From Candidatus Omnitrophota bacterium (GTDB lineage: Bacteria > Omnitrophota > Gorgyraeia > Gygaellales > JAQTUX01), in assembly GCA_028707125.1 (NCBI GenBank), contig JAQTUX010000001.1, positions 269,639-333,638 on the forward strand: a stretch of 64,000 bases of DNA. Direction: 5' to 3'. Positions 3-15,798 of this stretch are shown one piece after another (the stretch's first letter is position 1; each line of letters opens with the position of its first letter). The notes beneath the pieces are model-generated. The model did not search any database. It was given only the letters and a program-made list of their open reading frames with translations, and was not told the origin of the DNA. A program made the position numbers and the translations under genes.

Positions 3-3000
3 GAGCTGTTTACCGACGACCCGGGGCTTTCAGGCGCGATAGGCGGCGGCGCGGCTACGCAGGAAAGCAGCGGCATCTATCCTCCGGGCCAGGGCTGGAA
101 CACCAACGGCAGCCAGGCAACGGTTACGATGTACACCACAGGCACATACGCGTCAACCGCTCCCCAAAACCGTTCGTATAAGGTGCAGATAGATACGGCA
201 GGCAATACATTTTCCTGGTGGTATATGGACGATACCACCAACTGGACGAATACCGTCGGCGGCAGCGCAGTGGCAATGTCCACCAATTCCGCGGGCACTG
301 ACTTAAACGCCGGGGTCAAGGTGTATTTCAGCGCGGCATCAGGCACTGCCAACGACAGCTGGTATTTCTCCGCCTCAAACGGGACCGCCTATGGCGGGTA
401 TGATTCCTATGCCCAGACAGCCGCCTATACCGCGGGCGAAACAAGGATTTACAAGGACGGGGACCCGTTTTCTCCATATTACAACAAGATGGTATTCCAG
501 AGCGGGGCGACCAAGGTTACCCTTGACCAGCTGGCAGGCACTGTCGCCACCAACGCCACCATCTATAATCCCGCTATTGTCGGCGCCAACTCAGGCGGGC
601 TTACGATGTACAGTTCGGGAAGCTATACCGGTTCCGAGAGCCGCGCGTATCAGGTAAAGATCTCTTCGCAGGGTGTTGCCGGCACAAGCTCTGATAAGTT
701 CCAGTTTAAATACGGCGTCAATGACTGGGGCCCGGTAGGCGGCACAAGCATAACCGGCTCGCAGCAGTCCTTAGGCGACGGTATTTTTATCAGTTTTTCC
801 GAGAGCAACTACACTAACGACGGCACGATCACAGGCGGCAGCTCCTCAAATCCCGACCAGTGGAGCTTTAACGTTGTCGCCGGCTCAACCTCTACCAGCG
901 CCGGCGGCTGGACGGATTCTGGTACAGATGTGTACAGCTCCGCGGTAACCGACAATGTCGCCATTGGTACCACTGTTCCCGGCGGATACAAGTTGAATGT
1001 CAGCGGCACAGCCAACGCCACCACCTTGACAGAAGGCACAAACGCCGTGCCCAACGCAACCGACCACCTCGGCTTCTTTGCCGCAACCACCTCAGCGCAG
1101 CTTGCCGGAGTGCTATCGGATGAAACCGGCTCAGGTGGTGTCGCAGTATTCGCCACATCCCCTACAATCGCCACTCCCATTATTTCAACCTCTGCCACAG
1201 TTCCTCTGGTTATAGGCGGCAGCGCGACCACCAGCGATCTTTCCCTTCAGACCACTTCAGCCGCTGGTGAGGCAGGCGCGGATATGCATTTCCTCGTCGG
1301 CAATAACGGACAGACAGAGGCGATGACCATACTTAATTCCGGCTACGTGGGCATCGGCTCAACTGTCCCCACAGCAGCCCTGGACATAAACGGCAATATC
1401 CAGGTCTCTGGTACCATCACCGGCACCGTTGCCACAGCAGGCGGCTGGACAGACGCGGGCACATCTATGTATCCGACCAATGTGGACGATAACGTGGCCA
1501 TAGGCACAACAGACCCCGGCTCCTACGACTTGAATGTCGCGGGCACAGCCAATATGGGCACTCTATCCATAGGCGGCACTGCAGTCACAGCCAGCGCGAC
1601 AGAACTCAACTTCGTTGACGGGGTAACATCAGCCATTCAGACACAGCTTGATTCAAAGAGCGCGGCAAGCGACACACTTACTGGTTTAGTCCAGTCCACT
1701 GCCGCGGGCACAAGCTACATTACGGGCGGCTCTGTCGGCATCGGGACGACGAGTCCTCAATATTTGCTTGATGTAGACAAATCAGCCACAGGAAACTATA
1801 TTGCTCATATAAAGAATAGCGGGACTGCATCTTACGGGCTTTTTATAGAAGCCGGGACTGATACGGGTGATTATATTGTGAGCGTGGCAAGTAAGACAGG
1901 AAGTAACAAATTTGTAATAAGGGGTGACGGCAACGTCGGTATCGGCACGGTTGCACCAACCGCGCTATTGGACGTCAACGGCACTGCCAATGTTAACACG
2001 CTTTCAATAGGCGACACTACGATCACCCCCACGGCAGCAGAGCTCAACTTCGTAGACGGGGTAACATCAGCCATCCAGACACAGCTTGACGCAAAGGTGG
2101 GCACAAGCACCGCCTTCATAGGCGACGTCACCGGCGCCTACAACGCCACAGTTGTCGGCAACGACTCCCACGACCACACTGCCTCTACCATCTCCGGCCT
2201 GGGCGTCTCTGACTTCACTTCAGCCGCTATCTCCCAGTGGACCAATGACTCCAACTTCATCACCGCGGCAAGCACCATCACAGGGCTCATCCAGTCCACA
2301 GCCGCAGGCACCTCCTACATCACAGGCGGGAGCGTTGGGATAGGCACAGCAGTGCCGGGTGGTAAACTTGATATTTACGCTGACCAAAGCACCGAATACG
2401 CGTTGGTGGCGAGAAACACCGCCGACGCCAACCAGATTACGCATGCCTTTGACGCCAGCGCCGGCAATGCCCTTTTTAGATTGTGGGATGTTAATGGAGG
2501 TTTGAATGTTAATCTAGCTGCCAGTGGAAACAGCTATCTTAACGGCGGCAACGTCGGCATCGGGACGGCAGTGCCGGGTAGCGCATTAGAGGTCCAGGGA
2601 AATGTAACGCTTAACGACCGTTTGATTATGAGCGGTGATAGTATTGGCGCAACTGTTGATACAGCATACAACACGATTAAGGGCGCCATAGGGCCAACTA
2701 TAAACGGCCTAACATTAACCGGGGCATTAGTAGATTCTAACTTTTCAGACGATAATGCAAATATTACAAATGTGTATGGGTTAAAAATAGCAACTGCGGT
2801 TACGGGTCAGTATACTACAACTAATGCCTATGGATTATATGTAGACCAACCCACAGGTGCTACAAATAATTATGGCGCATATATAAACGGCAACCTCATT
2901 GTCTCCGGCACCATCACAGGAACAGTTGCCGCGGCCGGCGGCTGGACAGACGCGGGCACATCTCTCTACAACACCGAGCTGACTGACAAGGTAGGCATAG

Positions 3001-6000
3001 GCACTGCCACTCCTTCCCAGCTCCTGGACGTCAACGGCATTGCTAATGTGAACACGCTCTCCATAGGCGATACCACCGTTACATCCACTGCGGCAGAATT
3101 GAACATATTAGACGGCGTAACAGCCACCGCAACCGAGCTCAACTATGTTGACGGCGTAACATCAGCCATACAAACACAGCTGAACGCCAAGGTAGGTACA
3201 GCCACTTCATTCTCAGGAGACGTGACCGGCGCCTACAACGCCACAGTTGTCGGCAACGACTCCCACGACCACACCGCCTCAACCATCTCAGGGTTAGGCG
3301 TCTCTGACTTCACTTCAGCCGCCATCTCCCAGTGGACCAATGACTCCAACTTCATCACCGCTGCCTCTACCATCACTGGACTGATCCAGTCCACAGCCGC
3401 AGGCACAAGTTACATCACAGGCGGGGATGTAGGCATCGGGACTGCAGTGCCGGGAGAGAAACTTCATGTTTACAAAGAAAGTTTAACTGATAATAGTCAG
3501 GCAAAATTACTCAAGTTAGAAGGGAAGTTTAATGATGCTAGCATAGATAGCGATGATGTAATAGGAATTTCAGTAAAGGCGGTTAACTCTAGTGGGGGAT
3601 CCGGAGAGAATATGATTATTGGTGGCTCATGGGGAGGATCAGCGGTCAATACTTTATTAGCAGTAGATGGCGGCAACGTCGGCATCGGGACGACGGTGCC
3701 CGCGGCGAAATTGCATGTCTCGGCCCCGGCGGTTATTGCCGGCGGGTTTTATTCGGTCGCGGCAAATGACGCTGACGCGGATATCTGGGGTATTTCAACG
3801 ACCTATTATCCATCTCATGGAACAGCAGCCAACCAGTGGGGTATCAAGTGGCAGTCCACGCCGAACGCATTCTCTTTTGTGGGGAATGGCAGCGAGAAAT
3901 TAAACATCGATGTGGATACGGCAGGGCATATTTCGATGGTCGTGAACGGCGGCAACGTCGGCATCGGCTCAGCCGTGCCAGTTGCGAAACTTGATGTTGT
4001 CGGGACTGCCGAAGTGGACGGCCTCTCCATAGGCGGTACAGCAGTCACTCCCACCGCGGCTGAACTCAACTACGTTGACGGCGTAACCTCTGCCATACAG
4101 ACACAGCTTGACGCCAAGGTAGGCACAGCCACTTCGTTCTCAGGCGACGTGACCGGCGCCTACAACGCCACAGTTGTCGGCAACGACTCCCACGACCACA
4201 CTACCTCTACCATATCAGGGCTGGGTGTTGCTGACTTCTCCTCAGCCAACATCTCCCAGTGGACCAATGACTCCGGATATTTCAATACCAGTAACGACGG
4301 CGCAGGCAGCGGTTTGGACGCGGATATGGTGGATGGGTTGCATCCTACGCAATTCTTCAACGCCCACGGTCAGAATCACGGCACATATACGGACTTCAAT
4401 ACGCCTACAGATTTTGGATTTAGATACATTGTGGGTACCACAAACGGCCCTGGCATAGCCGGCGCAAGCCAATACTATAATCTTGGCATAGGGTTAGGTA
4501 ATGATTATGCCTATACAAGTTACGCTATGCAACTGGCGATTCCGAGAAACTTAAGCACTCCATATATATCTGTGAGATATAGAGAGAATGGAGCTTGGGG
4601 GTCGTGGTATAAGATTTATGCCGGATATGCTGATACCGCGGCCGCGCTTTCCAGCATGAACATCAGTCAGTTTACCAATAATTCCGGTTACTTTAATACT
4701 AGTAATGACGGCGCGGGAAGCGGCCTGGATGCTGACCTGCTGGACGGCCAAAGCAGCGCTTATTATATGACTGCCGCAACCGACAATTGGGTGAATACGA
4801 CCGGGGACACGATGAGCGGGAATCTGTATTTCAATAATTATGGGCTGGGAGTCATCGGCACCTATAGTGATATAAGATATCAGGGCGTATTTGCCATGGG
4901 CGATGCTTATAAGCTCGCTCTGGACGGTACGACATCAGGGACTTTATATGGCATTGCCTGGACCCATAGCAATATCGGAGGCCAATCCAAGGCGGGGTTA
5001 AGTCATCAGGCATTGTTTATGACAAATGGCGTGACTCAGACAGCAATAGGAACGGGTATATGGACGCTTGGCGGCTATACGCAAAGCGGGACAAGCACGA
5101 ATGCTTTTATGGGCAGCGTCGGCATCGGCACAGTGGCGCCGGGAGCGAAGCTGCATGTGACAAGCGCCAATACCGGAGCAGGGTTGTTGAGGTTGGATAA
5201 TACCGGTGGTTCAGCCGGGGATGTAAACGGGGTAGATTTTTATCATAATAACGGAACGTATTTACAGGCGTTTATACGCGATGAGATTCTGAGCAGCTGG
5301 CCCACGAAATTACATTTCGGCGTTGCCTCAACGAGCAACAACGCCGCGACAAAGATGACCATACAGGGGTCAAACGGCTACGTGGGCATCGGCACAGTGA
5401 GCCCGGCGGCGCATCTTCAGGTCGGCACAGGCACTCCCGGCTCTGCCACAGGCGCGGGCGACCTGTATGTGGCAAGCGACCTCGAGGTTGATTCCACCGC
5501 CTATCTTGACCTGGACGCGCGGGTAGGCCGCGACTTTATCGGCACAGCCGCCACTTCGTATATGTATATGACCGGCACGCTCACGGTTGACCTGGACAAC
5601 GACAACAATGGTACGGACAAGTTTTCTATAAGGGACGGCGGCAATACCGAGATATTCTACGTGAATGAAGATAACGGAGGCGGAGGCAATGTTGTGGCAA
5701 AGGGAGTCACCGAAGGCTCATACATAGGGTTATTCAAGGGCTTGGGTTCGCTTCCGGGCTACGGCTCCAGCCGTTATCCGACGCTGAAGACGGATTACTC
5801 CTACTTGTATTTCTCCGTTGCCGGCGCGTACTCCGCGTATATGGGCTCTAACGGCGTCCTGACCGCCCAATCCAGCCGCGAGAAGAAGGAGAACTTTAAG
5901 GAGCTTGACTTTGATAATGTCCTGGCAAAGATTGATAAAATGCCGGTTATGGAGTGGAACTACAAGAACGAAGAAGATTCCATAAAGCACATCGGCCCGT

Positions 6001-6179
6001 TTGCCGAGGATTTCCACGCGCTTTTCGGACTGAACGGCACCGATAATACAATGATCGGCCACAGCGACCCTCCGGGCGTTGCCCTCGCCGGCGTAAAAGG
6101 GCTGTATAGGAAGGTGAAGGAGCAGGAGAGGGTGATTGAAGAGCTGGAGACAAGGATAGCGGCGTTGGAGAAGAAGTAA
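3..6179 (+). CDS. Giant Thr/Gly/Ser-rich tail-fibre-like surface fibre protein, 5' end cut by the window edge
   Basis: The frame of the 129..6179 ORF stays open back to nt 3 (ELFTDDPGLSGAIGGGAATQESSGIYPPGQGWNTNGSQATVT then MYTTG). The module 'TMYxxGxY...R.Y.V.I' occurs at the first Met and again ~160 aa later, so the true start is probably upstream. Many copies of G(N/S)VGIGTxxPxxxLxV, ELN(F/Y)VDGVTSAIQTQL and GLDADxxDG motifs, as seen in phage tail-fibre-like proteins. I found no Cys in the 2016 aa shown. Confidence 0.85.
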   Translation, partial: ELFTDDPGLSGAIGGGAATQESSGIYPPGQGWNTNGSQATVTMYTTGTYASTAPQNRSYKVQIDTAGNTFSWWYMDDTTNWTNTVGGSAVAMSTNSAGTDLNAGVKVYFSAASGTANDSWYFSASNGTAYGGYDSYAQTAAYTAGETRIYKDGDPFSPYYNKMVFQSGATKVTLDQLAGTVATNATIYNPAIVGANSGGLTMYSSGSYTGSESRAYQVKISSQGVAGTSSDKFQFKYGVNDWGPVGGTSITGSQQSLGDGIFISFSESNYTNDGTITGGSSSNPDQWSFNVVAGSTSTSAGGWTDSGTDVYSSAVTDNVAIGTTVPGGYKLNVSGTANATTLTEGTNAVPNATDHLGFFAATTSAQLAGVLSDETGSGGVAVFATSPTIATPIISTSATVPLVIGGSATTSDLSLQTTSAAGEAGADMHFLVGNNGQTEAMTILNSGYVGIGSTVPTAALDINGNIQVSGTITGTVATAGGWTDAGTSMYPTNVDDNVAIGTTDPGSYDLNVAGTANMGTLSIGGTAVTASATELNFVDGVTSAIQTQLDSKSAASDTLTGLVQSTAAGTSYITGGSVGIGTTSPQYLLDVDKSATGNYIAHIKNSGTASYGLFIEAGTDTGDYIVSVASKTGSNKFVIRGDGNVGIGTVAPTALLDVNGTANVNTLSIGDTTITPTAAELNFVDGVTSAIQTQLDAKVGTSTAFIGDVTGAYNATVVGNDSHDHTASTISGLGVSDFTSAAISQWTNDSNFITAASTITGLIQSTAAGTSYITGGSVGIGTAVPGGKLDIYADQSTEYALVARNTADANQITHAFDASAGNALFRLWDVNGGLNVNLAASGNSYLNGGNVGIGTAVPGSALEVQGNVTLNDRLIMSGDSIGATVDTAYNTIKGAIGPTINGLTLTGALVDSNFSDDNANITNVYGLKIATAVTGQYTTTNAYGLYVDQPTGATNNYGAYINGNLIVSGTITGTVAAAGGWTDAGTSLYNTELTDKVGIGTATPSQLLDVNGIANVNTLSIGDTTVTSTAAELNILDGVTATATELNYVDGVTSAIQTQLNAKVGTATSFSGDVTGAYNATVVGNDSHDHTASTISGLGVSDFTSAAISQWTNDSNFITAASTITGLIQSTAAGTSYITGGDVGIGTAVPGEKLHVYKESLTDNSQAKLLKLEGKFNDASIDSDDVIGISVKAVNSSGGSGENMIIGGSWGGSAVNTLLAVDGGNVGIGTTVPAAKLHVSAPAVIAGGFYSVAANDADADIWGISTTYYPSHGTAANQWGIKWQSTPNAFSFVGNGSEKLNIDVDTAGHISMVVNGGNVGIGSAVPVAKLDVVGTAEVDGLSIGGTAVTPTAAELNYVDGVTSAIQTQLDAKVGTATSFSGDVTGAYNATVVGNDSHDHTTSTISGLGVADFSSANISQWTNDSGYFNTSNDGAGSGLDADMVDGLHPTQFFNAHGQNHGTYTDFNTPTDFGFRYIVGTTNGPGIAGASQYYNLGIGLGNDYAYTSYAMQLAIPRNLSTPYISVRYRENGAWGSWYKIYAGYADTAAALSSMNISQFTNNSGYFNTSNDGAGSGLDADLLDGQSSAYYMTAATDNWVNTTGDTMSGNLYFNNYGLGVIGTYSDIRYQGVFAMGDAYKLALDGTTSGTLYGIAWTHSNIGGQSKAGLSHQALFMTNGVTQTAIGTGIWTLGGYTQSGTSTNAFMGSVGIGTVAPGAKLHVTSANTGAGLLRLDNTGGSAGDVNGVDFYHNNGTYLQAFIRDEILSSWPTKLHFGVASTSNNAATKMTIQGSNGYVGIGTVSPAAHLQVGTGTPGSATGAGDLYVASDLEVDSTAYLDLDARVGRDFIGTAATSYMYMTGTLTVDLDNDNNGTDKFSIRDGGNTEIFYVNEDNGGGGNVVAKGVTEGSYIGLFKGLGSLPGYGSSRYPTLKTDYSYLYFSVAGAYSAYMGSNGVLTAQSSREKKENFKELDFDNVLAKIDKMPVMEWNYKNEEDSIKHIGPFAEDFHALFGLNGTDNTMIGHSDPPGVALAGVKGLYRKVKEQERVIEELETRIAALEKK
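2035..2345. repeat. Intragenic direct repeat copy A (~310 bp) in the fibre gene
   Basis: Encodes AAELNFVDGVTSAIQTQLDAKVGT..FIGDVTGAYNATVVGNDSHDHTASTISGLGVSDFTSAAISQWTNDSNFITAASTITGLIQSTAAGTSYITGG. The 48-nt run ccggcgcctacaacgccacagttgtcggcaacgactcccacgaccaca at 2131-2178 is identical in copies B and C. Confidence 0.9.
3135..3440. repeat. Intragenic direct repeat copy B
   Basis: Near-identical protein block (ELNYVDGVTSAIQTQLNAKVGTATSFSGDVTGAYNATVVGNDSHDHTAST...GLIQSTAAGTSYITGG). The identical 48-nt run lies at 3226-3273. Confidence 0.9.
4060..4270. repeat. Intragenic direct repeat copy C (shorter)
   Basis: ELNYVDGVTSAIQTQLDAKVGTATSFSGDVTGAYNATVVGNDSHDHTTSTISGLGVADFSSANISQWTNDS. The identical 48-nt run lies at 4153-4200. 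A more diverged partial copy is at ~1600-1740. Confidence 0.85.
5871..6176 (+). other. C-terminal intramolecular chaperone / autoproteolysis domain (peptidase S74, endosialidase-tailspike type)
   Basis: SSREKKENFKELDFDNVLAKIDKMPVMEWNYKNEEDSIKHIGPFAEDFHALFGL...GVALAGVKGLYRKVKEQERVIEELETRIAALEKK. It has the S-x-x-x-K-x-N start, the W.Y..E....H.G.IAQ-like core and a terminal coiled coil typical of this domain. Confidence 0.8.
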
Positions 6180-6187
6180 GACCAAAA

Positions 6188-6308
6188 GCGTATATCAGAT
6201 TATCAGTGTGTCAGTTAGAGTTTATCAGTTTATCAGAATATCAGAGAGAATGACCAATGTCCAATTTACCAATGACGAATGAAATCACAATGACTCAAAT
6301 CCCAAATA
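6188..6308. repeat. Left arm of a long imperfect inverted repeat built from TATCAG units
   Basis: Five TATCAG units (6193, 6201, 6223, 6231, 6239). 6188-6198 gcgtatatcag is the exact reverse complement of 6759-6769, and 6269-6283 ccaatgacgaatgaa is the exact reverse complement of 6677-6691. Confidence 0.8.
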
Positions 6309-6655
6309 GAAAGTATGATTTGCGGGAGAGAACTGCTAAATTTGGAGAAAACATAGTTAATTTCGCGAAGAGCATACCTGAAAATAGTGTGAATAGGCCA
6401 TTAATAAGTCAGCTAGTAAGGGCAGGTACGAGCGTAGGAGCTAATTATTGTGAAGCAGACGATGCCTCAACAAGGAAGGACTTCTTTTACAAAATTGGGA
6501 CCTGTAGGAGAGAATCAAAAGAGTCTAAGCATTGGCTTAGGATGATAACGACTGCTGTGCCTTCTTTGAAGGCTGAAGCCGAACTGTTCTTAAACGAGGC
6601 TCAAGAGTTAAATTTGATATTTTCCGCCATTATTAATAGGGCCGGAAAACGTTAA
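6257..6655 (+). CDS. Four-helix-bundle protein ('23S rRNA intervening-sequence protein' family); the true start may be the ATG at 6290
   Basis: YDLRERTAKFGENIVNFAKSIPENSVNRPLISQLVRAGTSVGANYCEADDASTRKDFFYKIGTCRRESKESKHWLRMI matches the family hallmarks (..QL.RA.TS.GAN..E......KDF..K......E..E...WL). The first 11 codons of the track ORF lie inside the left repeat arm. The region is visibly more AT-rich than its neighbours. Confidence 0.85.
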   Translation: MSNLPMTNEITMTQIPNRKYDLRERTAKFGENIVNFAKSIPENSVNRPLISQLVRAGTSVGANYCEADDASTRKDFFYKIGTCRRESKESKHWLRMITTAVPSLKAEAELFLNEAQELNLIFSAIINRAGKR

Positions 6656-6769
6656 TTGGGTATTGGGATTTGGACATTCATTCGTCATTGGGATTTGGTA
6701 ATTGTGGCTTAAGCTGATATACCGTTCTCTGATGTTCTCTAACTGATAAACTGATGTTCTGATATACGC
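6656..6769. repeat. Right arm of the inverted repeat (CTGATA units)
   Basis: ttcattcgtcattgg (6677-6691) and ctgatatacgc (6759-6769) pair perfectly with the left arm. The ~70-nt stretches between them are collinear and partly complementary (attgggattt / aaatcccaaat, ctaactga, ctgataaactga). Confidence 0.8.
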
Positions 6770-6846
6770 AGTTAACCCTGATAACCTTTACTTATCCGTA
6801 ACCATAACCGATAAACGTAACCCAATACCCGTTCCCTCCCTAGATT

Positions 6847-6874
6847 TTCATTGTAAAAGCCGCGAAAATATGAT
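6847..6874 (+). promoter_or_regulatory. Candidate sigma70-like promoter for the long operon
   Basis: TTCATT (6847-6852), 16 nt spacer, TATGAT (6869-6874), followed by TATAAA; ~60 nt upstream of the first operon gene. The promoter consensus of this organism is unknown. Confidence 0.25.
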
Positions 6875-6932
6875 ATAAAATCAGTTATACACCGAGTCCC
6901 GAGCCCTCCCAGCAGGAGACAATTAATACAAG

Positions 6933-7709
6933 ATGTCCGGTTATTTTCTGAGGCTAATCAAGGCGCGGCATATTCTGCGAAGCATGGTCCTGAAGAACTT
7001 GAAGGACAAATATGTCGGCTCAACACTGGGTATCTTCTGGGCGGTGATAAACCCCCTGTTGATCATGTCGGCCGTATCCTTTGTTTTCACTCAGGTGATG
7101 CAAACCCCGATACGGCGCTACCCGCTGCTGGTATTAAGCGCCTACCTTCCCTGGAATTTCTTCGTTAACTCCGCCACTGAAAGCGCCGCCTGCATAAGGC
7201 AGAATCAAGGCATACTCTCTCAATACACCATCCCCCGCGAGGCCATACCCGTATCAGTCGCGCTCGCCGATTTCCTGAACTTTTTATTCGGATTCGCGGC
7301 GATGCTGCCGATATTCATCTTCATGAACAGGGGGGCCGCGGGATGCCTGTGGCTGCTGCCTTTGGTAATGGCCCTGCATCTGGCATTCACCGTCGGGATC
7401 TCCTTATTGTTCAGCATCATCAATATATATTTCAGGGATTTTTCCCAGCTCCTGGGAGTGGGAATGCTGTTCTGGTTCTGGGTCACGCCGGTCTTCTACA
7501 CCCTGGAGATGATGCCTGCCGGCCTTCGCGGGGCATTCCTGGCCAACCCCGCCACATGCTATACGGTTATTTACAGGGAATTATTATATAACGGCCGCTG
7601 CGGCGGCATATCCATGTGGGTATTGGCCGTTATCTTCGCTTTGGCGAGTTTGGCGGGTGGATACATCTTATTTGCCGCCAAAGAAAAGGATATCCTCAAG
7701 CATATTTAG
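6933..7709 (+). CDS. wzm: ABC-2 type polysaccharide/polyol-phosphate export permease (Wzm/TagG-like)
   Basis: 258 aa with ~6 hydrophobic segments. The N-terminal LKNLKDKYVGSTLGIFWAVINPLL motif is typical of ABC-2 permeases. It sits immediately upstream of the cognate ATPase. Confidence 0.85.
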   Translation: MSGYFLRLIKARHILRSMVLKNLKDKYVGSTLGIFWAVINPLLIMSAVSFVFTQVMQTPIRRYPLLVLSAYLPWNFFVNSATESAACIRQNQGILSQYTIPREAIPVSVALADFLNFLFGFAAMLPIFIFMNRGAAGCLWLLPLVMALHLAFTVGISLLFSIINIYFRDFSQLLGVGMLFWFWVTPVFYTLEMMPAGLRGAFLANPATCYTVIYRELLYNGRCGGISMWVLAVIFALASLAGGYILFAAKEKDILKHI

Positions 7710-10421
7710 ATGATAACGCTGGAAGACGTTTGGCTGAAATACAGGATAGCGTTCAAGGAAGGCGCGAGGGCCGTTTGCGAGGATTTCTGGGCGCTTAAGG
7801 GCATAGACCTGAATGTCGGCAAGGGAGAGTGTTTCGCGGTCATCGGAGAGAACGGCTCAGGCAAGACCACGCTCCTGAGGGTGATCAGCGGCATGCTAAT
7901 GCCTGACAAGGGCAGGGTGCGCCTGGGAGGAAGGGTCGCCGGGCTTATGGAGATACAGGCCGGTTTCCATCCTGAACTGACCGGCAGGGAGAATATCTAC
8001 AATATCTCGGCGCTTTCAGGCCTGAGCGCCGATGAGACAGGCGCCTGTTACGCGGACATGGTTGAGTTTGCCGCCATCGGCAGGTTCATCAACGCCCCGG
8101 TAAAGACATACTCCCAGGGCATGCTTGTGCGCCTTGCCTTTGCCATAGCCATACACGCGCGCACCGACATATTGCTGGTTGACGACATATTCGCGGTAGG
8201 CGATATTTATGCCCGGCGCAAGTGCATTAATAAGATGTTTGAGCTGAAGGATAAGGGCCTGACCATTATTTTTGTTTCTCATGACCTGGATATTGCCAGG
8301 CGGCTGTGTAAAAGAGGCGTGCTGCTCAGGGAAGGCAGGGTTATCAGGGCCGGTTCAATAGACGGACTCGTCAGTTATTATCTTGAGACGGTAGGCAATA
8401 AGGAAGGTATAGCCCTGCTGCAAAAAGGGCGGCTGGCAATTATTTTTAATAACGGCAAGCTGATCATCAGGTGGAACGACTCCGCTCTTACCAAGGGCGC
8501 GGCCGGGCATACGGTGATGAGCTCTTCGGGCAGGACATATCAGTCAGATACCGCCTCCTGGATTATCCGGCAGCCGGCGGCAGCCGATGAGATCGTTGCC
8601 GTAGGCAGGTGGCCGGATATGCCGGCTGAGCTTATCTGGAAGATACGCTGCCGCGGCGAAAAGGAATTCAGCTGGGATGTAACTCTGCAGGCGCGCGCAC
8701 AGGCCCGGATAGAGGATTACACGGCCAGATTGATCCTGACCGACGAATACGAGGGCTGGTTTACATCGCAGGAGGAATACGTTTTTCCGGAGGCGTTCCT
8801 GCATGAGAACGAATGGCAGAGCCGCCGGATAGACGATCATCTTAACTGGCTGATAGGGTTAAAGACGGGAGCCGATAGCGGCGAAGGCCTGCCAACGCTT
8901 GTTTTAGACAGCTCAGGCGCGGATAAACAGGGCGCCTGCCAGATCGGCAATACCGGCATTGAGGCCTCTGCCAGAGGTATTCAGTTCAATTACGTTAATC
9001 CGGAACCAGAGCATGCCGCGGGCAGCTATAAGTTTTTTTCAACCGGCGTGAAGTTATTTGAGGAGCGGGACAGGCAGGATTTTGAATGTTATATGGCGCG
9101 GGCAAGGCAGGCCGGCAGGCGCAGGATCATCAGCCGCGGCCCGCTCGCCCTGTGTTGCGGGCAGCGCAAAATAGAGATTTTCCTGCGGGATGCGCTTTTA
9201 AGCAGCGGCGCGGGGCTGGATACGAAATTCATCTGGCAGGGCCGTACCTACAGCGCCGCCGGAGGTAACTGGTCCGTAGAAAAAGAAGGAGATAATTATC
9301 TTGTAGTTAATATCTTTTGGGGGCCCGAAGCGCCTTTTTTCCAGGTATGGAGAATGGAACTGCGGGATGAGTCCGCCATTTTCTGGCAGGCGGATATGGA
9401 AATAAGAGATGGGCTGGAGATCAGGAACAGGCAGGTTGAGCTTTTTCTCAGCGGCCGATATGACAGGTGGTTTACGCCTTCGGAAAACGGCGACTTTGGG
9501 GCAGTGGAAAAAAAAGGCAACACAGTCATACTAAGTAAATACATAAACGATTTTTCCGGCGTAGAACAGTCCTGCCTTATGCCGGCGGTTACCTTCGCCA
9601 ATCAAGACGGCCGCGCCAGAGTGTCGTATATTTCCCGGGGCCAGGACAAGGAATTAAATACGAAGCTGCATTATCTGGAGATAGATCCCGCCGCTGACGC
9701 GGCGCTTGAAGCAGGCAGGCACGCCTTTTTTAAGGGGGCCATAAGGATAGCGCCCAGGCAGGGACAAAAAGGCGTTGACGCGGTTGTCAATAATAACGGC
9801 GCGGCCGCGGCGATAAATTTTAACGGCGTTTCTCTGGATTTCAGGCACGGCAGGATGCGTCTTTTCTATGAAGGCGTTGAATTGACAAAAGGGCTGGGCC
9901 TTTACTCTGCGGTTTTGCATGAAGGCAACTGGCATGATTCTTCGCAGGGACTATGGAAGGTCGAGGCCTCGGACAGGGAAAGGTTCGTCGCCGTGGGCCG
10001 CTGGCCGTGGCTGCCTGTCAGGCAGGAATGGGAAGTAACGCTATTGGATGGCCGCGATATCATCTGGCGCATAACCAGGGATACCCGGGACGGCTTTGAT
10101 CCCGACAAGGAGCAGGTTAACCTGATGCTGTCGGATAATTACCGGGAGTGGTTTGTCCGGGAAAGGGCGCGGGGAAGGTTTCCCGAAGAGTTTGCCGAGC
10201 ATACCCGCGGCGGGTTCTGGGAGCGGTTATGGTCGGCGGCAGCGCAGTCGCCGGTCGGCGCCAAAGGGCCTGGGCTGCCGTCTGTCCTCCTGGACTGTTC
10301 AGAGAGCCCGGTTCCCGGCCGCCTGTGCATTGAGAACACGGACGCGTTATTCAAGGCCAGGGTCCTGCAGTGCGAATCGGCGCAGCAAAAACATTTTAGC
10401 GGAAAGATAAAGATATGCTGA
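7710..10421 (+). CDS. wzt: ABC exporter ATP-binding protein (Wzt/TagH-like) with a ~670-aa C-terminal extension made of three copies of an unassigned module
   Basis: Walker A GENGSGKTT, signature-like YSQGMLVRLAFA, Walker B ILLVDDIFAVGD, H-loop VSHD within aa 1-230. The ATG abuts the stop of the permease gene. The extension (nt ~8400-10418) has three ~200-aa repeats at ~8415-9075, ~9125-9760 and ~9805-10418. Confidence 0.9.
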   Translation: MITLEDVWLKYRIAFKEGARAVCEDFWALKGIDLNVGKGECFAVIGENGSGKTTLLRVISGMLMPDKGRVRLGGRVAGLMEIQAGFHPELTGRENIYNISALSGLSADETGACYADMVEFAAIGRFINAPVKTYSQGMLVRLAFAIAIHARTDILLVDDIFAVGDIYARRKCINKMFELKDKGLTIIFVSHDLDIARRLCKRGVLLREGRVIRAGSIDGLVSYYLETVGNKEGIALLQKGRLAIIFNNGKLIIRWNDSALTKGAAGHTVMSSSGRTYQSDTASWIIRQPAAADEIVAVGRWPDMPAELIWKIRCRGEKEFSWDVTLQARAQARIEDYTARLILTDEYEGWFTSQEEYVFPEAFLHENEWQSRRIDDHLNWLIGLKTGADSGEGLPTLVLDSSGADKQGACQIGNTGIEASARGIQFNYVNPEPEHAAGSYKFFSTGVKLFEERDRQDFECYMARARQAGRRRIISRGPLALCCGQRKIEIFLRDALLSSGAGLDTKFIWQGRTYSAAGGNWSVEKEGDNYLVVNIFWGPEAPFFQVWRMELRDESAIFWQADMEIRDGLEIRNRQVELFLSGRYDRWFTPSENGDFGAVEKKGNTVILSKYINDFSGVEQSCLMPAVTFANQDGRARVSYISRGQDKELNTKLHYLEIDPAADAALEAGRHAFFKGAIRIAPRQGQKGVDAVVNNNGAAAAINFNGVSLDFRHGRMRLFYEGVELTKGLGLYSAVLHEGNWHDSSQGLWKVEASDRERFVAVGRWPWLPVRQEWEVTLLDGRDIIWRITRDTRDGFDPDKEQVNLMLSDNYREWFVRERARGRFPEEFAEHTRGGFWERLWSAAAQSPVGAKGPGLPSVLLDCSESPVPGRLCIENTDALFKARVLQCESAQQKHFSGKIKIC

Positions 10422-13400
10422 AGGGCCTTTTATTTAATAACAGGAACAGGCGCGCGATAGAACGCGCCGGCATAAAAATAGATATTGATGAAGAGCGCCG
10501 CTTCAGGATCTACCATAACGGCAGCGAGCTCAGCAAGCTGCAGGGCATGCGCGTCTGTTTGTTTTCAGAGGGCAGATGGCACTATTTTCCCGCCAAAGAC
10601 AGTATCTTGAAGATAAGCAGGCCCGATGAAACCAGTTTTAGTTTGCGGCTTTACAATAGAACGCTGCCTGTTGTCCTGCATTGGGGAATGGAGCTGGGTG
10701 AGGGCAGCCGGTTGAAATGGAGCGTGGAATTAGAGCTAAAGGGGCCCATACGGCTGGATGCCGTGAAGGCCGTAGTGCTCCTCAGCCGTTCCTATAAAAG
10801 CTGGTTCTCTTATTCCGGCGCTAAAGAGGGCCTGTTCGCTGATAGCGCCGGAGAATTCCGGCAGGAGATCGGTATTGCCGATTCTGATTTTTTAAGCATT
10901 GGCGCGGACAGGCCGGAAATTGCCACGCTGCTGTTAAGGGCGGTTGATTCGCCTTTAAATGTTTCTTTGTGTAACACGGATGATCTGTCTTCCTCGCGTG
11001 AAGTTGATCTCTGCTGCAACGGGCAGAAGGAATTTTATGCCCCCGGCAGGCACTCTTGTTTTCAGGCGGTTATTGAACTCTGCGGGGATAAGTCCGCAGT
11101 AGAAAATATCATTCAGGATGTAAAAGGCAGAAAGAGGCGCGAAGAAGAAGAGGCGCTGCGTAAAAAGGAAGAGGAGCGCCTGGCGGAAGAAGAACAGCGC
11201 CGGCTAGAGGAAGAACGCCTGCGCCAGGAGGAACAAAGGCGCCTGGAAGAAGAGCGCCGAAAACAGGAAGAGCTCAAGCGCCTGGAAGAAGAGCGCCTGA
11301 GAATTGAGCGCGCGCGGGACCGGCAGCGGCGCACGCTTGAGGCGGGTGATTTCAGGATTTATTTTGACTACAATAACCGTTTCCATTTCTACCACAGGAA
11401 TGAGGAGTTTACCAAGGCGCATGGCCTGCATACGGGTATATTTTCAGAGGGCCGCTGGTATGGTTCGGCGGATTCAGAGGCCGCTATAGAGAATAGTGAG
11501 CCGGGTAGATTAAGGATCAATTTCAGGCACAGACATCTGCCCGTTATTCAATCCTGGGACCTGCGGTTAGATTCCGCGGGAGTAATCAGGTGGAGCGTTG
11601 ATATGCGGCTTGAGCAGCCGTTAAGGATAGAGCGCAGGAACGCCTGCCTGTTTTTGTCCCGCGCCTATGACAGGTGGCTTGCGCCTCCGGACGCGGGGGC
11701 GTTCCCCGCGGCATTCGGCCTGCAATGGCAGATGGCCAGCCCTTCGGAGAGCAGGCCGGGCTTTATAGGGCTGACGTCCGGGATGAAGCAGCTGCCGGGC
11801 ATAACATTAAAGGGCTCCGAAGACGGCGGCCGCCTGGCTGTTCATAACGCGGATATGGATGTCTCATCCCGCGTCCTTGAGGAGCGTTTTGAAGAGCGCG
11901 TAGAGTTTTACAAGGCAGGCGATTACTCTTTCTCGCGGGCGGTCATCCGGCTTTATAATGATAACGCGGCCATCGAGGGCGCGTTCAAAGAGGCGGAAGA
12001 AAAAGAGAACGCGCTCAGAGAGTTGCGCAAAGAGCGGCTGAGGCGCGCCGCCGGGCTAAGGCAGGGGAGAAAAGAATTTGAGGGGCTGCGCCTGCGCCCC
12101 GCGGCCTCGCGCGTCGTTATTTACGGCGATTCCCAGGGCCTGCACGATAAGATCAGCGGCGAGGCAGGCGGTTTTAACAGGGCCGTAGCGTGCATTAAGG
12201 CAGAAAGCGGCACAGCCGCGGTAGGTATCTCACGGTTTAATTTCTTCAAGATCCATGAGGTCGTCCAGTTCATCTCTACTTTGAGGAACGCGCGGATCGA
12301 TACGCGCCCTGTCTGCCTGCCGCTGTTTCCGGCAAGCGGTATTTACTCCAGTTTTCTTAATTACATAAAGGAGATCAAATCTCTCGTCGCAGGAAAGGGC
12401 ATCGAACTTTTCTTAAAAGACGTTGATCTGCTCAAACTCCTGCAGGCTGTGTCTTCGCAGTCCAATAGAGATAACGAGAGGGACCTGCTGCGGCTTCTGG
12501 GGCTGATAGCCGAGCATCCCTTTATCGGGCCGCAGACGCTGGTCCTCGACACAACGCATAAATGCAATACAAACTGCGCCCATTGCTGGATACACAACCC
12601 CCGCAGCAAGACGCCCCCCGCCGTGCTCGAATCAAAGATGGACGACCGCCTGTACAGGAAGATCATTGACGACGCGGCAGCCATTTTGAGCGACGAGGTC
12701 ATAATACAGGGCGACGGAGAGCCGCTTCTGGACGACCGCTTTATCGAGATGGCGCGTTACGCCAGGGACAAGGGGTTAAAGGTCCTGTTCTTTACCAACG
12801 GCATACTCCTGGATGAGGCGACGGCTAAATGCCTGATAGACCTGGAGGTCAATGAGATATTCTGCAGCCTGCCCGCCGGGACCGACCTGACCTACAGCTG
12901 GATAAATTCGCGGCAGTCAAAAGACACCTTCCACAGGATCGTCGGCAATCTGAAAAACCTGATCTCCCTGAGGAACGGCTCGGGCAGGCCCCTGCCGCTT
13001 TTGCAGATGACCCACGTGATACACAATATGAATTGCCATGAGATCGAGCAGATGTCCGCTGTTGACGCGGACATAGGCGCGGACAGGGCACGCTTCTACC
13101 TGGCCCGCCTTGACGAGAACATCGCGCATTTAAAGATACTATCTTCACAGGTAGAGGCGCTAAAGGCATCCCTGCGGAAGGCCGCCGCGTTGCTTAAAGA
13201 AAGCAAAATAGACCTGCAGGACAATATTTTTTTCCAGCTGGACAATTATCAGCCGGAGACCGGTTACTGGTCGCAGGGCCGTTTTCTTGAAACGGGCTGC
13301 CCGGTGGGGTGGTTTTTCGCGCTGATATTGGCTGGAGGAGAATTGAGCATGTGCTGCCATATGCGGGTGGTCGGGCGCCTGGGGGAAAGATCGCTGAGGG

Positions 13401-13588
13401 AGGCGTGGAATTCCCGGGAATACAACGATTACAGGGTCAAGGCCAAACATATGCGGGACAATATGGACGCGCGTTTCTCAAACGGCGTCAAGCTTTACGA
13501 TGATTTCTGCAATCATTGCGATACGCATCAGGTGATCTTAAGGATAAACGGCCTGCTGGAGCGATACGGGCTGAAGAAATTCTTATAA
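10415..13588 (+). CDS. Multidomain radical-SAM protein: two copies of the Wzt-extension module, an E/R coiled coil, a linker domain and a C-terminal rSAM/SPASM-like catalytic domain
   Basis: CX3CX2C at 12563-12586 (HKCNTNCAHCW), GDGEPLL, and C-terminal Cys motifs GELSMCC...CNHCDTH. The modules lie at ~10472-11085 and ~11336-11965. The gene overlaps the wzt stop by 7 nt. Confidence 0.8.
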   Translation: MLKGLLFNNRNRRAIERAGIKIDIDEERRFRIYHNGSELSKLQGMRVCLFSEGRWHYFPAKDSILKISRPDETSFSLRLYNRTLPVVLHWGMELGEGSRLKWSVELELKGPIRLDAVKAVVLLSRSYKSWFSYSGAKEGLFADSAGEFRQEIGIADSDFLSIGADRPEIATLLLRAVDSPLNVSLCNTDDLSSSREVDLCCNGQKEFYAPGRHSCFQAVIELCGDKSAVENIIQDVKGRKRREEEEALRKKEEERLAEEEQRRLEEERLRQEEQRRLEEERRKQEELKRLEEERLRIERARDRQRRTLEAGDFRIYFDYNNRFHFYHRNEEFTKAHGLHTGIFSEGRWYGSADSEAAIENSEPGRLRINFRHRHLPVIQSWDLRLDSAGVIRWSVDMRLEQPLRIERRNACLFLSRAYDRWLAPPDAGAFPAAFGLQWQMASPSESRPGFIGLTSGMKQLPGITLKGSEDGGRLAVHNADMDVSSRVLEERFEERVEFYKAGDYSFSRAVIRLYNDNAAIEGAFKEAEEKENALRELRKERLRRAAGLRQGRKEFEGLRLRPAASRVVIYGDSQGLHDKISGEAGGFNRAVACIKAESGTAAVGISRFNFFKIHEVVQFISTLRNARIDTRPVCLPLFPASGIYSSFLNYIKEIKSLVAGKGIELFLKDVDLLKLLQAVSSQSNRDNERDLLRLLGLIAEHPFIGPQTLVLDTTHKCNTNCAHCWIHNPRSKTPPAVLESKMDDRLYRKIIDDAAAILSDEVIIQGDGEPLLDDRFIEMARYARDKGLKVLFFTNGILLDEATAKCLIDLEVNEIFCSLPAGTDLTYSWINSRQSKDTFHRIVGNLKNLISLRNGSGRPLPLLQMTHVIHNMNCHEIEQMSAVDADIGADRARFYLARLDENIAHLKILSSQVEALKASLRKAAALLKESKIDLQDNIFFQLDNYQPETGYWSQGRFLETGCPVGWFFALILAGGELSMCCHMRVVGRLGERSLREAWNSREYNDYRVKAKHMRDNMDARFSNGVKLYDDFCNHCDTHQVILRINGLLERYGLKKFL
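11125..11335 (+). other. Highly charged E/R/K/L heptad-like coiled-coil segment (~70 aa)
   Basis: RKRREEEEALRKKEEERLAEEEQRRLEEERLRQEEQRRLEEERRKQEELKRLEEERLRIERARDRQRR, with internal repeats of (E)EQRRLEEER(L/R)R. Confidence 0.8.
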
Positions 13589-13593
13589 AAGAT

Positions 13594-15798
13594 ATGAAGA
13601 TATCATTGGTAAATCTGCCCTGGAGGAGTTTTGGCAGGGAGGGGGTGAGGGCTGGTTCCCGCTGGCCGCATTTGAAGGCCCGCTCGGAGAAAGAATATCT
13701 GCCTTTCCCCTTTTTTCTCGCCTACGCGGCGGCGCTGCTTAAAAAGAACGGATTTAACGCGCGGCTCATTGACGCCATCGCCAGCGGCCTGTCTTACAGG
13801 CGGTTTTCGCGCCGGATGCGCTCCAGCCGCCCCGACATCCTGGTCTGCGAGACGTCCACGGTGACCCTCAAGCATGACTTGCGGGTCCTGAAGGGCCTGG
13901 GGAGCAAGGCGGAGATCATCCTTTGCGGCCCGGATGTCAATATCCGCCGGCCGGATTTTCTCAGGGAGAACGGATTTATAAAATATGTGCTGTCCGGAGA
14001 ATATGAATTTACGCTCCTTGAACTGCTGCAGCATCTTGATGAGGGCCGCGGCCTTGATGAGGTAAAGGGGATCATATACCGCTCTAACGGCGGCGTGAAG
14101 ATCAATCCCGCGCGGCCCCTGGTTGACCTGGACCGCCTGCCCTGGCCTCTGCGCGAAGGCCTGCCGATGTCGCGTTACAACGATGCCCCGGGAGACATAC
14201 CCATACCGTCGGTGCAGATGATGGCCTCACGCGGCTGCCCGTTTCGCTGCAAGTTCTGCCTCTGGCCGCAGGTGATGTATCAGGGCAGCCATTACAGGGC
14301 CAGGAGCGTCGTGGACGTCGTTGATGAAATGGAATACCTGGTCAGGAATTCGGGATACAGGTCGGTCTATTTTGACGACGATACCTTTAACTGCGGCAAA
14401 GAAAGGATGCTCGGCCTCTGCGCTGAGATCAAGAAGAGGGGCCTGAATATCTTCTGGGCGATAATGGCAAGGGCCGACCTGATGGATGAGGAGATCCTGG
14501 TGAATATGAAAGAGGCGGGGTTGTTTGCCGTCAAATACGGCGTGGAATCCGCCGATAACTCCCTGTTGGACAATATCAATAAGGGTATGTCGCTTGAAAA
14601 AACAGAGGCCGTCATCAAGATGACCAGGGCGCTGGGCATCAAGACCCACCTGACCTTTACCCTGGGCCTTCCGGGAGAGACCAGGCAGACCATAAAAAAG
14701 ACGGTTGATTTCGCCTTAAAGGCCGATCCGGAATCGCTTCAGTTTTCCCTGGCTACGCCGTTTCCGGGAACGGAGTTCTACAGGGAGATGAAGGAGAACG
14801 GCCGGATAATCTCCGCTGATTGGGCAAGATACGATGGAAGCCGCAGCAGCGCGCTCGCCTATGACGATCTCTCCGCGGGCGAGCTTGAGCGCGCCATGAG
14901 GTCGGCTTACAGGCGGTGGGCAATGCACCGTTTGAAAAGGGCCCGTTTTGACCGATTGGGGCTAAAGGCGTATTGCCGCTATTCCCTTGTCAATTCAATA
15001 AATAGCAACGGAATTGTCATGACCGCTTATAAGGTTTCGCGGTTTGCTTTCAGGTACGCGCTTATGCACGTGAGGGAGGCGTTGGTGTCCTCGCCCCGTA
15101 AGATTGAAAACATCGCGCGGGAAAAGGGGTTGAAACTGGGAAGGATGTCCCTGGTCCCGGACGGCCGCGGCCTGAGTTTGTTCTGGGGCGGCCTCAAGTT
15201 GACCCGCGGACGCGGATTTTACAGCTTTCTAAATTTTGAAGGCGCGGATAACGGCAGCGACGGCGCGCTTAAATGGGACACGCAGAGGCCGGACGCGGGC
15301 AGCATTATATTGAGGCGCCTGTATGACGGCGCCGGCATTGAGGAGATATGGAAGATAACCGCGCTGGATGAAAAGCAGATCGGCTGGGACGTGGATATTG
15401 AAATAAAAAAAGAGACGGGTGTGCGGCAGGAAGATATCGGCCTGGCGCTTACGCGCAAATACCGCAAGTGGATAGAAGAATGGGGCGAGGGCAGGTTTCC
15501 CCCTTTGAACGATTACCGCGAAGTTGAGCTCAGGAACGCGCGCAGCGCCGTTGTCGGCGTAAGGGGCAGGAGGGCATTGAGGAATACTCTGCCCACGGTC
15601 CTGCTTGACCTGTCCGCCGGCAATAACGGTTTTCTCCCGTCGGTAGGGAACTCGGCAGAAGGGCATCACGGCCGCCTGCTCGGGGTCAGGCTCGCGCGAG
15701 GGGCCCGCGTCCGCAGATACGCCGCCGGAAGGCACAGGTTGTTGTCGGCCAGGATAAAGATAGTGGAAGAGGATTTCGCGAAGGGCGGGCGAAGATGA
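13594..15798 (+). CDS. B12-binding-domain (class B-like) radical-SAM protein with one C-terminal copy of the Wzt-extension module
   Basis: The ATG at 13594 (MKISLVNLPW) is preferred to the track start at 13516, which overlaps the upstream gene. Rossmann-like N-terminal domain (DILVCETST...IILCGPD...VLSGEYE), ASRGCPFRCKFCLWP, and a module at ~15150-15790 (LSLFWGGLKLTRGRGFY...LPTVLLDLS). Confidence 0.85.
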   Translation: MKISLVNLPWRSFGREGVRAGSRWPHLKARSEKEYLPFPFFLAYAAALLKKNGFNARLIDAIASGLSYRRFSRRMRSSRPDILVCETSTVTLKHDLRVLKGLGSKAEIILCGPDVNIRRPDFLRENGFIKYVLSGEYEFTLLELLQHLDEGRGLDEVKGIIYRSNGGVKINPARPLVDLDRLPWPLREGLPMSRYNDAPGDIPIPSVQMMASRGCPFRCKFCLWPQVMYQGSHYRARSVVDVVDEMEYLVRNSGYRSVYFDDDTFNCGKERMLGLCAEIKKRGLNIFWAIMARADLMDEEILVNMKEAGLFAVKYGVESADNSLLDNINKGMSLEKTEAVIKMTRALGIKTHLTFTLGLPGETRQTIKKTVDFALKADPESLQFSLATPFPGTEFYREMKENGRIISADWARYDGSRSSALAYDDLSAGELERAMRSAYRRWAMHRLKRARFDRLGLKAYCRYSLVNSINSNGIVMTAYKVSRFAFRYALMHVREALVSSPRKIENIAREKGLKLGRMSLVPDGRGLSLFWGGLKLTRGRGFYSFLNFEGADNGSDGALKWDTQRPDAGSIILRRLYDGAGIEEIWKITALDEKQIGWDVDIEIKKETGVRQEDIGLALTRKYRKWIEEWGEGRFPPLNDYREVELRNARSAVVGVRGRRALRNTLPTVLLDLSAGNNGFLPSVGNSAEGHHGRLLGVRLARGARVRRYAAGRHRLLSARIKIVEEDFAKGGRR

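Follow-up and report, generated by a model that had tools for sequence, protein, structure and literature searches.

The 64,000-nucleotide stretch of Candidatus Omnitrophota DNA analysed here (the window) carries, at positions 6188-6769, a two-layer inverted repeat that encloses a gene for a four-helix-bundle protein of the PF05635/TIGR02436 family, the '23S rRNA intervening sequence (IVS) protein' family. We found that the inner repeat arrays and the open reading frame (ORF) between them form a discrete conserved module of ~460 bp (~6246-6705), that the outer layer, built of TATCAGnn/CTGATRnn units, is an independent hairpin element which also exists without the cassette, and that outside rRNA the PF05635 family has, as a rule, its gene held in a hairpin, in many phyla and with repeat units that differ. 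On balance, and with moderate confidence, we read the element as an IVS-type module nested in a second hairpin, the stem of whose transcript would be processed by RNase III.

A first-pass annotation of the window had placed here an outer stem of 11 bp (6188-6198, GCGTATATCAG, with 6759-6769, CTGATATACGC) and an inner stem of 15 bp (6269-6283, CCAATGACGAATGAA, with 6677-6691, TTCATTCGTCATTGG), and both proved to be perfect. The outer arms can be extended to 41 nt (6188-6228 with 6729-6769) at 83% complementarity. The same annotation took the arms for a single repeat of TATCAG/CTGATA units, a description that has to be replaced: the hairpin is a composite of two repeat types, and the TATCAG/CTGATA units lie outside the conserved cassette. 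Tandem Repeats Finder resolved the 5' arm into two arrays, one at 6193-6245 with a period of 8 (TATCAGAT, 6.9 copies) and one at 6249-6282 with a period of 7 (AATGACC, 4.7 copies). TATCAG is represented by five exact units and one TGTCAG, and a search of the window for TATCAGnnTATCAG with at most one mismatch gave nine matches where 0.21 would be expected; the two arms account for six of them. The outer 3' arm holds a single exact TAACTGA (6740-6746) followed by TAAACTGA, the period of the array itself being 8 (CTGATRnn/TATCAGnn). A search of all 64 kb (seed 11, minimum length 20) detected two inverted repeats, of which this is the only strong one (Table 1).

Folding of 6180-6780 as RNA, the check that the first-pass annotation had proposed, gave -185.4 kcal/mol against -144.9 +/- 6.1 kcal/mol for shuffled sequences (z -6.7); the minus strand of the same interval folded as well (z -6.9). 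The outer layer alone reached -59.1 kcal/mol (z -11.1) and the inner layer alone -35.4 kcal/mol (z -5.2), and the two arms, stripped of the cassette and joined by a GAAA tetraloop, reached -95 kcal/mol. The cassette is also AT-richer than its surroundings, as had been noted at the outset, with a GC content of 39.6% against 53.8% and 50.1% in the flanks. Beyond the outer 3' arm, at 6775-6835, lie further degenerate units (CTGATAACC and GTAACCATAACCGATAAACGTAACCCAATACCC), and the letters at 6821-6830 (CCCAATACCC) are complementary to those at 6658-6667 (GGGTATTGGG). An alternative downstream hairpin spanning 6655-6835 folded no better than shuffled sequences (z -0.2) and was rejected.

Table 1. 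Features of the hairpin-bracketed cassette and of its neighbours, in window coordinates
Feature	Coordinates	Strand	Description
Upstream gene	129..6179	+	2016-aa repetitive surface/tail-fibre-like protein with C-terminal Peptidase_S74; stop 9 nt before the outer arm
Outer 5' arm	6188..6245	+	~7 octamers TATCAGnn, starting GCGTA; pairs with 6706-6769; outside the module common to relatives
Conserved insertable module	6243..6704	+	inner arms and ORF; boundaries from blastn in four gene neighbourhoods
Inner 5' arm	6249..6289	+	~5 AATGACC-like heptamers, core CNAAT; contains the 15-bp perfect stem 6269-6283
Four-helix-bundle '23S rRNA IVS protein' gene	6257..6655	+	PF05635, TIGR02436; stop TAA 6653-6655
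Inner 3' arm	6656..6705	+	inverted heptamers of ATTGG/ATTCG type; non-coding; pairs with 6249-6305
Outer 3' arm	6706..6769	+	inverted octamers CTGATRnn, terminus TACGC
Downstream gene	6933..7709	+	ABC-2 permease, opening a long co-directional cluster; start 164 nt past the outer arm

The enclosed ORF encodes 132 aa if read from its first in-frame ATG (6257) and 121 aa from the ATG at 6290. The inner 5' arm contains the in-frame ATGs at 6257 and 6272 as well as an out-of-frame ATG at 6250, and a third in-frame ATG follows at 6290, so that the start codon is either within the 5' arm or at the arm's inner end. The encoded protein is 100% identical to that of a Candidatus Omnitrophica genome bin, where it lies on a 1.26-Mb contig. 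Family membership is secure, with matches to PF05635 (44.9 bits, cut-off 33.8, E 1.5e-11), to TIGR02436 (66.5 bits, cut-off 24) and, by sequence, to PDB entry 2rld (E 4e-13). The AlphaFold model has four helices (predicted local distance difference test score, pLDDT, 81), and Foldseek matched it to 2rld with a template modelling (TM) score of 0.77-0.85, to 2gsc, and to the accessory protein Avd (4dwl) with a TM score of 0.68-0.76. The family motif RxxxSxxxNxxE, as defined in PMC3936711, is present as R-AGT-S-VGA-N-YC-E in LVRAGTSVGANYCEA, and the leading G of GxxR is absent. The protein is basic (isoelectric point, pI, 9.6), and neither profile nor structure searches gave the 121-132-aa protein any likeness to a transposase or recombinase.

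The element lies outside 23S and 16S rRNA and is flanked by protein-coding genes; Rfam, rRNA models included, gave nothing in the window at the gathering threshold and nothing in 6100-6950 at E<=1. We compared the locus with those of 80 close relatives (55-76% identity; L numbers below are our handles for loci), from bins assigned to Omnitrophota, Patescibacteria/CPR (candidate phyla radiation), Planctomycetota, Cloacimonadota, Margulisiibacteriota, Stahlbacteria, Verrucomicrobiota, Lentisphaerota, Bacteroidota, Ignavibacteriota and others. The threshold for tight bracketing by an inverted repeat was the 95th percentile of the score among 252 control ORFs from the same loci. By this measure 70 of the 80 relatives (87.5%) are bracketed, the median score being 43 against 19 for the control ORFs (Mann-Whitney p 4e-34), and rRNA is present at 0 of the 80 loci. 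These data bear out the suggestion that an IVS-like gene-in-stem arrangement exists here outside rRNA.

The geometry of the arms was analysed at the 72 relatives' loci with an arm score of at least 30. The median arm there is 47 nt long; between the end of the 5' arm and an in-frame ATG the median distance is 1 nt, and between the stop and the start of the 3' arm it is 10 nt. Across the family the arms consist of tandem units with a period of 7 nt (the autocorrelation peaks at lags 7 and 14 and is 0.50 at the former), and the core motif CNAAT is oriented, occurring 265 times in sense and 4 times in antisense in the 5' arms, with the mirror image in the 3' arms. The layout was kept in all seven distant cyanobacterial or Bacteroidota homologues examined (31-38% identity; plasmids of Nostoc, Anabaena, Aulosira, Pseudanabaena and Bernardetia), where the units are for example (AATTCAA)n, (CAATTCG)n or (AGTAAAA)n, one (AATTCAA)n/(TTGAATT)n pair being perfect over 31 nt. 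The unit therefore varies by lineage while the flanks of each gene stay inverse copies of one another. No relatives were found in viral contigs, and a phage database returned two weak matches only. Several individual loci deserve mention. In the second-closest genomic relative (L002:3001-3396, 75% identity) the reading frame is broken, the longest open stretch to the stop being ~36 codons, and this copy looks like a pseudogene with its arrays still recognisable. In a Cloacimonetes single-cell genome both outer arm ends are capped by an identical 16-nt palindrome, TCCCGACnTGTCGGGA (L015:2986-3001 and 3431-3446), and small GC-rich palindromes abut an arm at L035, L059, L060 and L065.

Both the protein and its two arms are under purifying selection. 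Among the closest relatives, which share 76-85% amino-acid identity and lie in unrelated contexts (L081, L083, L085, L086 and L001), dN/dS is ~0.04-0.07 and synonymous sites are saturated (dS >1.3 or not computable). Over the same comparisons the inner arms are 82% (5') and 80% (3') identical, against 86% at codon positions 1+2 and 34% at four-fold sites. Expressed as matches per length, the arms score 0.79 and 0.66, shuffled arms 0.44 and 0.34, and the sequence just outside the module 0.21. Mismatches between the paired arms are unevenly spread: their rate is 0-6% in the core (15% at its variable position, the N of CNAAT) and 22-33% in the 2-4-nt spacers.

The extent of the module follows from comparison with four gene neighbourhoods (L081/L082, L083/L084, L085 and L086/L087), in which blastn homology to the window starts at 6243-6249 and ends at 6704, except for L085, where it ends at 6684, the end of the contig. 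The four comprise type II secretion genes, the gene for a LamG-type giant protein, an ABC-transporter operon, in which the cassette sits between the binding-protein and permease genes (L086), and a fourth contig. The TATCAG units are absent from the relatives in all four. Similarly, the likeness (76%) of the Nostoc and Aulosira copies (L250 and L258) is confined to the stretch between the outer ends of the two arrays, with unrelated sequence on either side. Three Nostoc flagelliforme copies, considered as independent insertions, were rejected as segmental duplicates of the plasmid backbone.

The outer layer has a different distribution. Arrays of three TATCAG units are common in metagenomes and in viral contigs, and none of 159 such loci contains a PF05635 relative or either of the window's flanking genes; the outer unit is therefore not a trait of the family. 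In 23 of these arrays an inverted CTGATR cluster follows at 3-460 nt (all but two at <=130 nt), which identifies them as stand-alone hairpins. One of them, a 129-bp copy between co-directional sugar-nucleotide genes (L108:2459-2600), is collinear unit by unit with the outer arms of the window, 2459-2525 matching the 5' arm and 2538-2600 the 3' arm, and shares its termini (AAAAGCGTATATCAG ... CTGATA(A/T)ACGCAGTTAAC). It folds to -61.2 kcal/mol (z -9.2) and has a 13-nt loop where the window has the 460-bp cassette. The window cassette thus sits in the apical loop of an independent octamer hairpin.

Other arrangements of the same repeats were seen. Stand-alone TATCAG hairpins at L103, L105, L123, L133, L167 and L200 have a common consensus, TATCAGgtTATCAGgtagtgggTATCAGgtTATCAGaaTATCAGgttaat, which suggests a multi-copy element of one uncultured group. 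The hairpin at L103:2640-2870 is itself nested and gene-less, in the order (AATTGGT)n-(TATCAGnn)n-loop-(CTGATRnn)n-(ACCAATT)n, with a heptamer polarity opposite to that of the cassettes. ORF-less 'solo hairpins' with the same arrays as the cassettes occur at L016:3377-3501, L019:3409-3551, L043:1491-1568, L045:4182-4301 and 5711-5857, L046:6171-6284 and L009:11-100; they retain start- and stop-proximal bits of the cassette, and some lie directly behind an intact one.

Relatives of the cassette are typically embedded in operons, as expected of an element that depends on host transcription. The neighbour upstream runs the same way as the cassette at 66 of 71 loci, the one downstream at 61 of 68; among loci whose two neighbours share a direction, the cassette is in sense at 56 of 57. 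The median gap is 5 nt between the upstream stop and the first arm, and 12 nt between the second arm and the start of the following gene. Hairpin-bracketed PF05635 genes were also found beside cas genes (L252:1492-1839, L255:1492-1848 and L253:1498-1866): on plasmids of Anabaena cylindrica and Nostoc sp. TCL26-01 the cassette is flanked by cas2 and cas1, which run on the other strand, and in Pseudanabaena by csx2 and cas1, there with all three on one strand. The published links of the family to CRISPR adaptation modules may reflect insertions of the cassette.

A mechanism that would unite these features begins with the cassette lacking a promoter of its own, so that transcription would read through from the upstream gene. 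The arms would then pair in the transcript to form an interrupted stem of ~90 bp, which would hide the start codons of the cassette and juxtapose the upstream stop with the downstream sequence. Cleavage of this stem by RNase III would free the cassette RNA and separate the flanking transcripts; such processing and insulation is plausible by homology with the 23S rRNA IVSs that are known to be cleaved. The basic, Avd-like protein probably binds the stem, and the module may spread horizontally with a preference for hairpin loops or by exchange through its repeat arms. The GC content of the ORF, below that of its flanks at 70 of 72 loci, fits horizontal spread.

Several observations weigh against this scheme. 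With 164 nt in front of it, the downstream gene of the window may have a promoter of its own. The sense share of 56 of 57 is no higher than that of ordinary operon genes at the relatives' loci (148 of 161), and three of the seven plasmid copies are antisense to their neighbours, the two between cas2 and cas1 among them. Arm mismatches show no excess of G:U (90) over A:C (81), in a test that has little power since the mismatches fall mostly in spacers; as both strands also fold alike, sense RNA and DNA are not told apart as the selected form. Position-by-position covariation of the arms was not demonstrable within the close family. Moreover, the cognate 3' arm is the best partner of its 5' arm at only 13 of 73 loci, the mean pairing score being 46 for cognate and 30 for non-cognate arms of the same lineage; together with the oriented core motif and the concentration of mismatches in spacers, this means that selection could act on the motif and not on pairing. 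The first-pass suggestion of a mobile or insertable cassette has indirect support from the module edges in four contexts, from the arm-to-arm likeness of the Nostoc and Aulosira copies and from the cassette-less hairpin at L108. Signs of movement itself were not seen: an empty site at the orthologous position was not found, the nearest homologues of the ABC-2 permease (P0122, 73%; P0132, 57%) being non-syntenic upstream; there is no target-site duplication at the mapped boundaries (window module, L250/L258); no recent duplicates or near-identical copies in differing contexts were seen; and synonymous saturation between the closest copies leaves no sign of recent movement.

A different explanation, which we consider unlikely, is that the arrays are the DNA-level ends of a transposable or recombination-mobilised element. 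The arms would be recognition sites or portable homology for insertion and exchange, perhaps helped by the encoded protein or by an enzyme acting in trans, and the RNA hairpin would be a by-product. Module edges that lie exactly at the outer arm ends, ORF-less derivatives resembling MITEs (miniature inverted-repeat transposable elements), the low GC content of the ORFs and the seat of the cassette in the loop of another repeat element all speak for it, as do the orientation of CNAAT, the equal folding of the two strands and the missing G:U bias. However, neither the boundaries, with no target-site duplication, nor the four-helix bundle, which resembles no transposase or recombinase, has the character of such an element, and near-identical copies in differing contexts are lacking. 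Arm sequences are wholly different between lineages, and within the close family they have been conserved long past synonymous saturation, which is unexpected for the ends of an element that inserted once.

Alternatively, the arms could offer serial binding sites to a factor that recognises specific single-stranded or duplex nucleic acid and regulates translation, either the cassette protein as a pentamer or a protein of S1, Csp or CsrA type, as has been proposed for TAACTGA repeats, with complementarity secondary. This is the less probable of the two, a decidedly unlikely explanation, and it draws on the strict 7-nt periodicity, on the near-invariance of the core relative to the spacers, on the start codon at the inner end of the array, on the median distance of 12 nt between the 3' array and the start of the following gene, and on the basic character of the protein. 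Non-cognate arms pair well too, their mean of 30 comparing with ~17-19 for shuffled flanks and control ORFs, and the TAACTGA arrays of Beggiatoaceae lie just upstream of start codons (PMC4679880). What a pure binding model does not need, however, is that arms built of radically different units (CNAATnn, AATTCAA, CAATTCG, AGTAAAA, TATCAGnn) should always be inverse copies of each other, nor that irregular units (AAAG spacers, rare variants) should be mirrored in order, as they are for example at L004 and L027.

That the hairpin is no more than a terminator or insulator separating the surface-protein gene from the operon, the ORF being incidental, is very improbable. The position between two transcription units, the high stability of the stem and the promoter-like hexamers downstream at 6845-6874 agree with it; against it stand the absence of any predicted terminator-like site on the + strand in 6000-7000 and of a U-tract after the stem, an enclosed 400-nt gene under purifying selection, and the fact that most relatives' cassettes lie between tightly packed genes of one operon, as at L086. 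That the element is a remnant of a diversity-generating retroelement (DGR) carrying its Avd gene, or a chance low-complexity palindrome, is barely credible: Avd belongs to the same structural family and the arms are repetitive, but the surrounding genes encode a Peptidase_S74 protein, an ABC-2 permease, an ABC ATPase and radical S-adenosylmethionine (radical-SAM) proteins, with no reverse transcriptase adjoining the cassette (genes scanned to 22.5 kb), 5900-7100 contains no long direct repeats of the template/variable type, and chance is excluded by the shuffles and by conservation over ~90 loci.

There is also a more general possibility, in which we place little confidence: PF05635 proteins and inverted 7-8-nt arrays would make up a ubiquitous self-contained 'hairpin cassette', whose protein, as a pentamer, recognises its own array at about one unit per subunit and controls RNase III excision or promotes insertion into hairpin loops. 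The short tandemly repeated repetitive (STRR) sequences, TAACTGA arrays, GGGAATC pairs and ORF-less rRNA IVSs would then be its footprints or derivatives.

The surroundings of the element have features of their own. The 2016-aa upstream protein is built of recurring 'AELNFVDGVTSAIQTQL' and 'SGLGVSDFTSAAISQWTNDSNF' blocks and ends in a Peptidase_S74 intramolecular-chaperone domain as in phage tail fibres; its first 1000 aa gave no Pfam match. Of the ten genes that come after the ABC-2 permease and the ABC ATPase downstream (10415-22488), at least eight encode radical-SAM proteins, many with SPASM domains, and a GDSL lipase gene is also present. Co-directional ORFs continue to ~62.9 kb, and the run of radical-SAM paralogues is unusually long. 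No second copy of the cassette occurs within the 64-kb window. Beside the closest homologue of the ABC-2 operon (permease 73%), the upstream gene (L088:1-321) ends in YIERNPVRARIV..., which we take to be of the REP (repetitive extragenic palindromic)-associated/IS200-like tyrosine transposase type; a hairpin-related mobile gene thus appears to occupy the spot at L088 equivalent to that of the window cassette.

Two long-standing puzzles are touched by these findings, the 30-year question of what IVS proteins do and the origin of intergenic heptamer arrays. In the window and ~90 related loci gene and hairpin travel as one module, outside rRNA, in operons and in other hairpins. ORF-containing IVSs in rRNA have been described (PMC4990558, PMC11270868), PF05635 genes are known to be scattered in cas operons (PMC3936711, PMC10910872), and Avd is recognised as similar to the PF05635 family (PMC10053308). 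In the literature searched (subscription journals lay outside its scope) we found neither a hairpin-bracketed cassette outside rRNA, nor its nesting in a repeat hairpin, nor any work joining the IVS, cas-operon, Avd and heptamer-array facts. Insertion of the cassette would account for the gene's 'association' with cas operons and with other unrelated clusters.

Among known systems, inverted-repeat transposons and MITEs share with the module a unit bounded by terminal repeats in differing contexts, and differ in having target-site duplications and a transposase or near-identical copies. The Correia elements (nemis) of Neisseria, which are cut by RNase III, and the enterobacterial repetitive intergenic consensus (ERIC) sequences, or intergenic repeat units (IRU), are likewise small inverted-repeat elements that lie between co-transcribed genes, fold in the mRNA and affect its processing. 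They are gene-less, and have conserved terminal repeats and target-site duplications, not tandem 7-8-nt units.

Tandem arrays offer a second comparison. Cyanobacterial STRR repeats were reportedly described by Mazel et al. in 1990. TAACTGA repeats occur in Beggiatoaceae, cyanobacteria and Bacteroidetes, where they have been proposed as binding sites for translational control (PMC4679880), and the GGGAATC arrays of Xanthomonas often form convergent pairs able to fold into stem-loops (PMC4692102). Like those of the window, all three are tandem 7-8-nt units in transcribed spacers that often end before a start codon. The inner arrays of the window are intergenic arrays of period 7, as these are, whereas its outer units are octamers. 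The arrays of PMC4679880 and PMC4692102 are not tied to PF05635 genes, whereas those of the window are the two arms of a gene-carrying hairpin.

Avd (PDB 4DWL, 8UB7) resembles the window protein in its four-helix-bundle fold (see above) and in being basic. It binds RNA stem-loops, and a long-range duplex in the DGR RNA loops out the template (bioRxiv 10.1101/2023.10.23.563531). Unlike Avd, with which it shares ~14% identity, the window protein has no adjoining reverse transcriptase or template/variable repeats, and arms made of heptamer arrays are not a described feature of DGRs.

The closest parallel is provided by the ORF-containing IVSs of 23S rRNA (Leptospira, Coxiella burnetii, Xanthomonas and others; S23p/PF05635), which encode the same protein family from an ORF in a stem-loop of terminal inverted repeats. 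In the 23S IVS of Coxiella the ATG of S23p is preceded by three GACAGAT units in tandem and these by a Shine-Dalgarno-like sequence, and RNase III excises the IVS, cutting at the first tandem heptamer (PMC4990558). The window element differs in lying in a spacer between protein genes, in sense behind a coding gene, and in having as its host helix a TATCAG-octamer hairpin and not an rRNA helix; excision by RNase III, which has been shown for the rRNA IVSs, is a proposal for the window element. The two also have points in common: both carry tandem heptamers between the base of the stem and the ATG, the short ORF-less versions of the rRNA IVS are paralleled by the solo hairpins, and the rRNA IVS occupies the tip of a 23S helix just as the window cassette occupies the tip of a hairpin.

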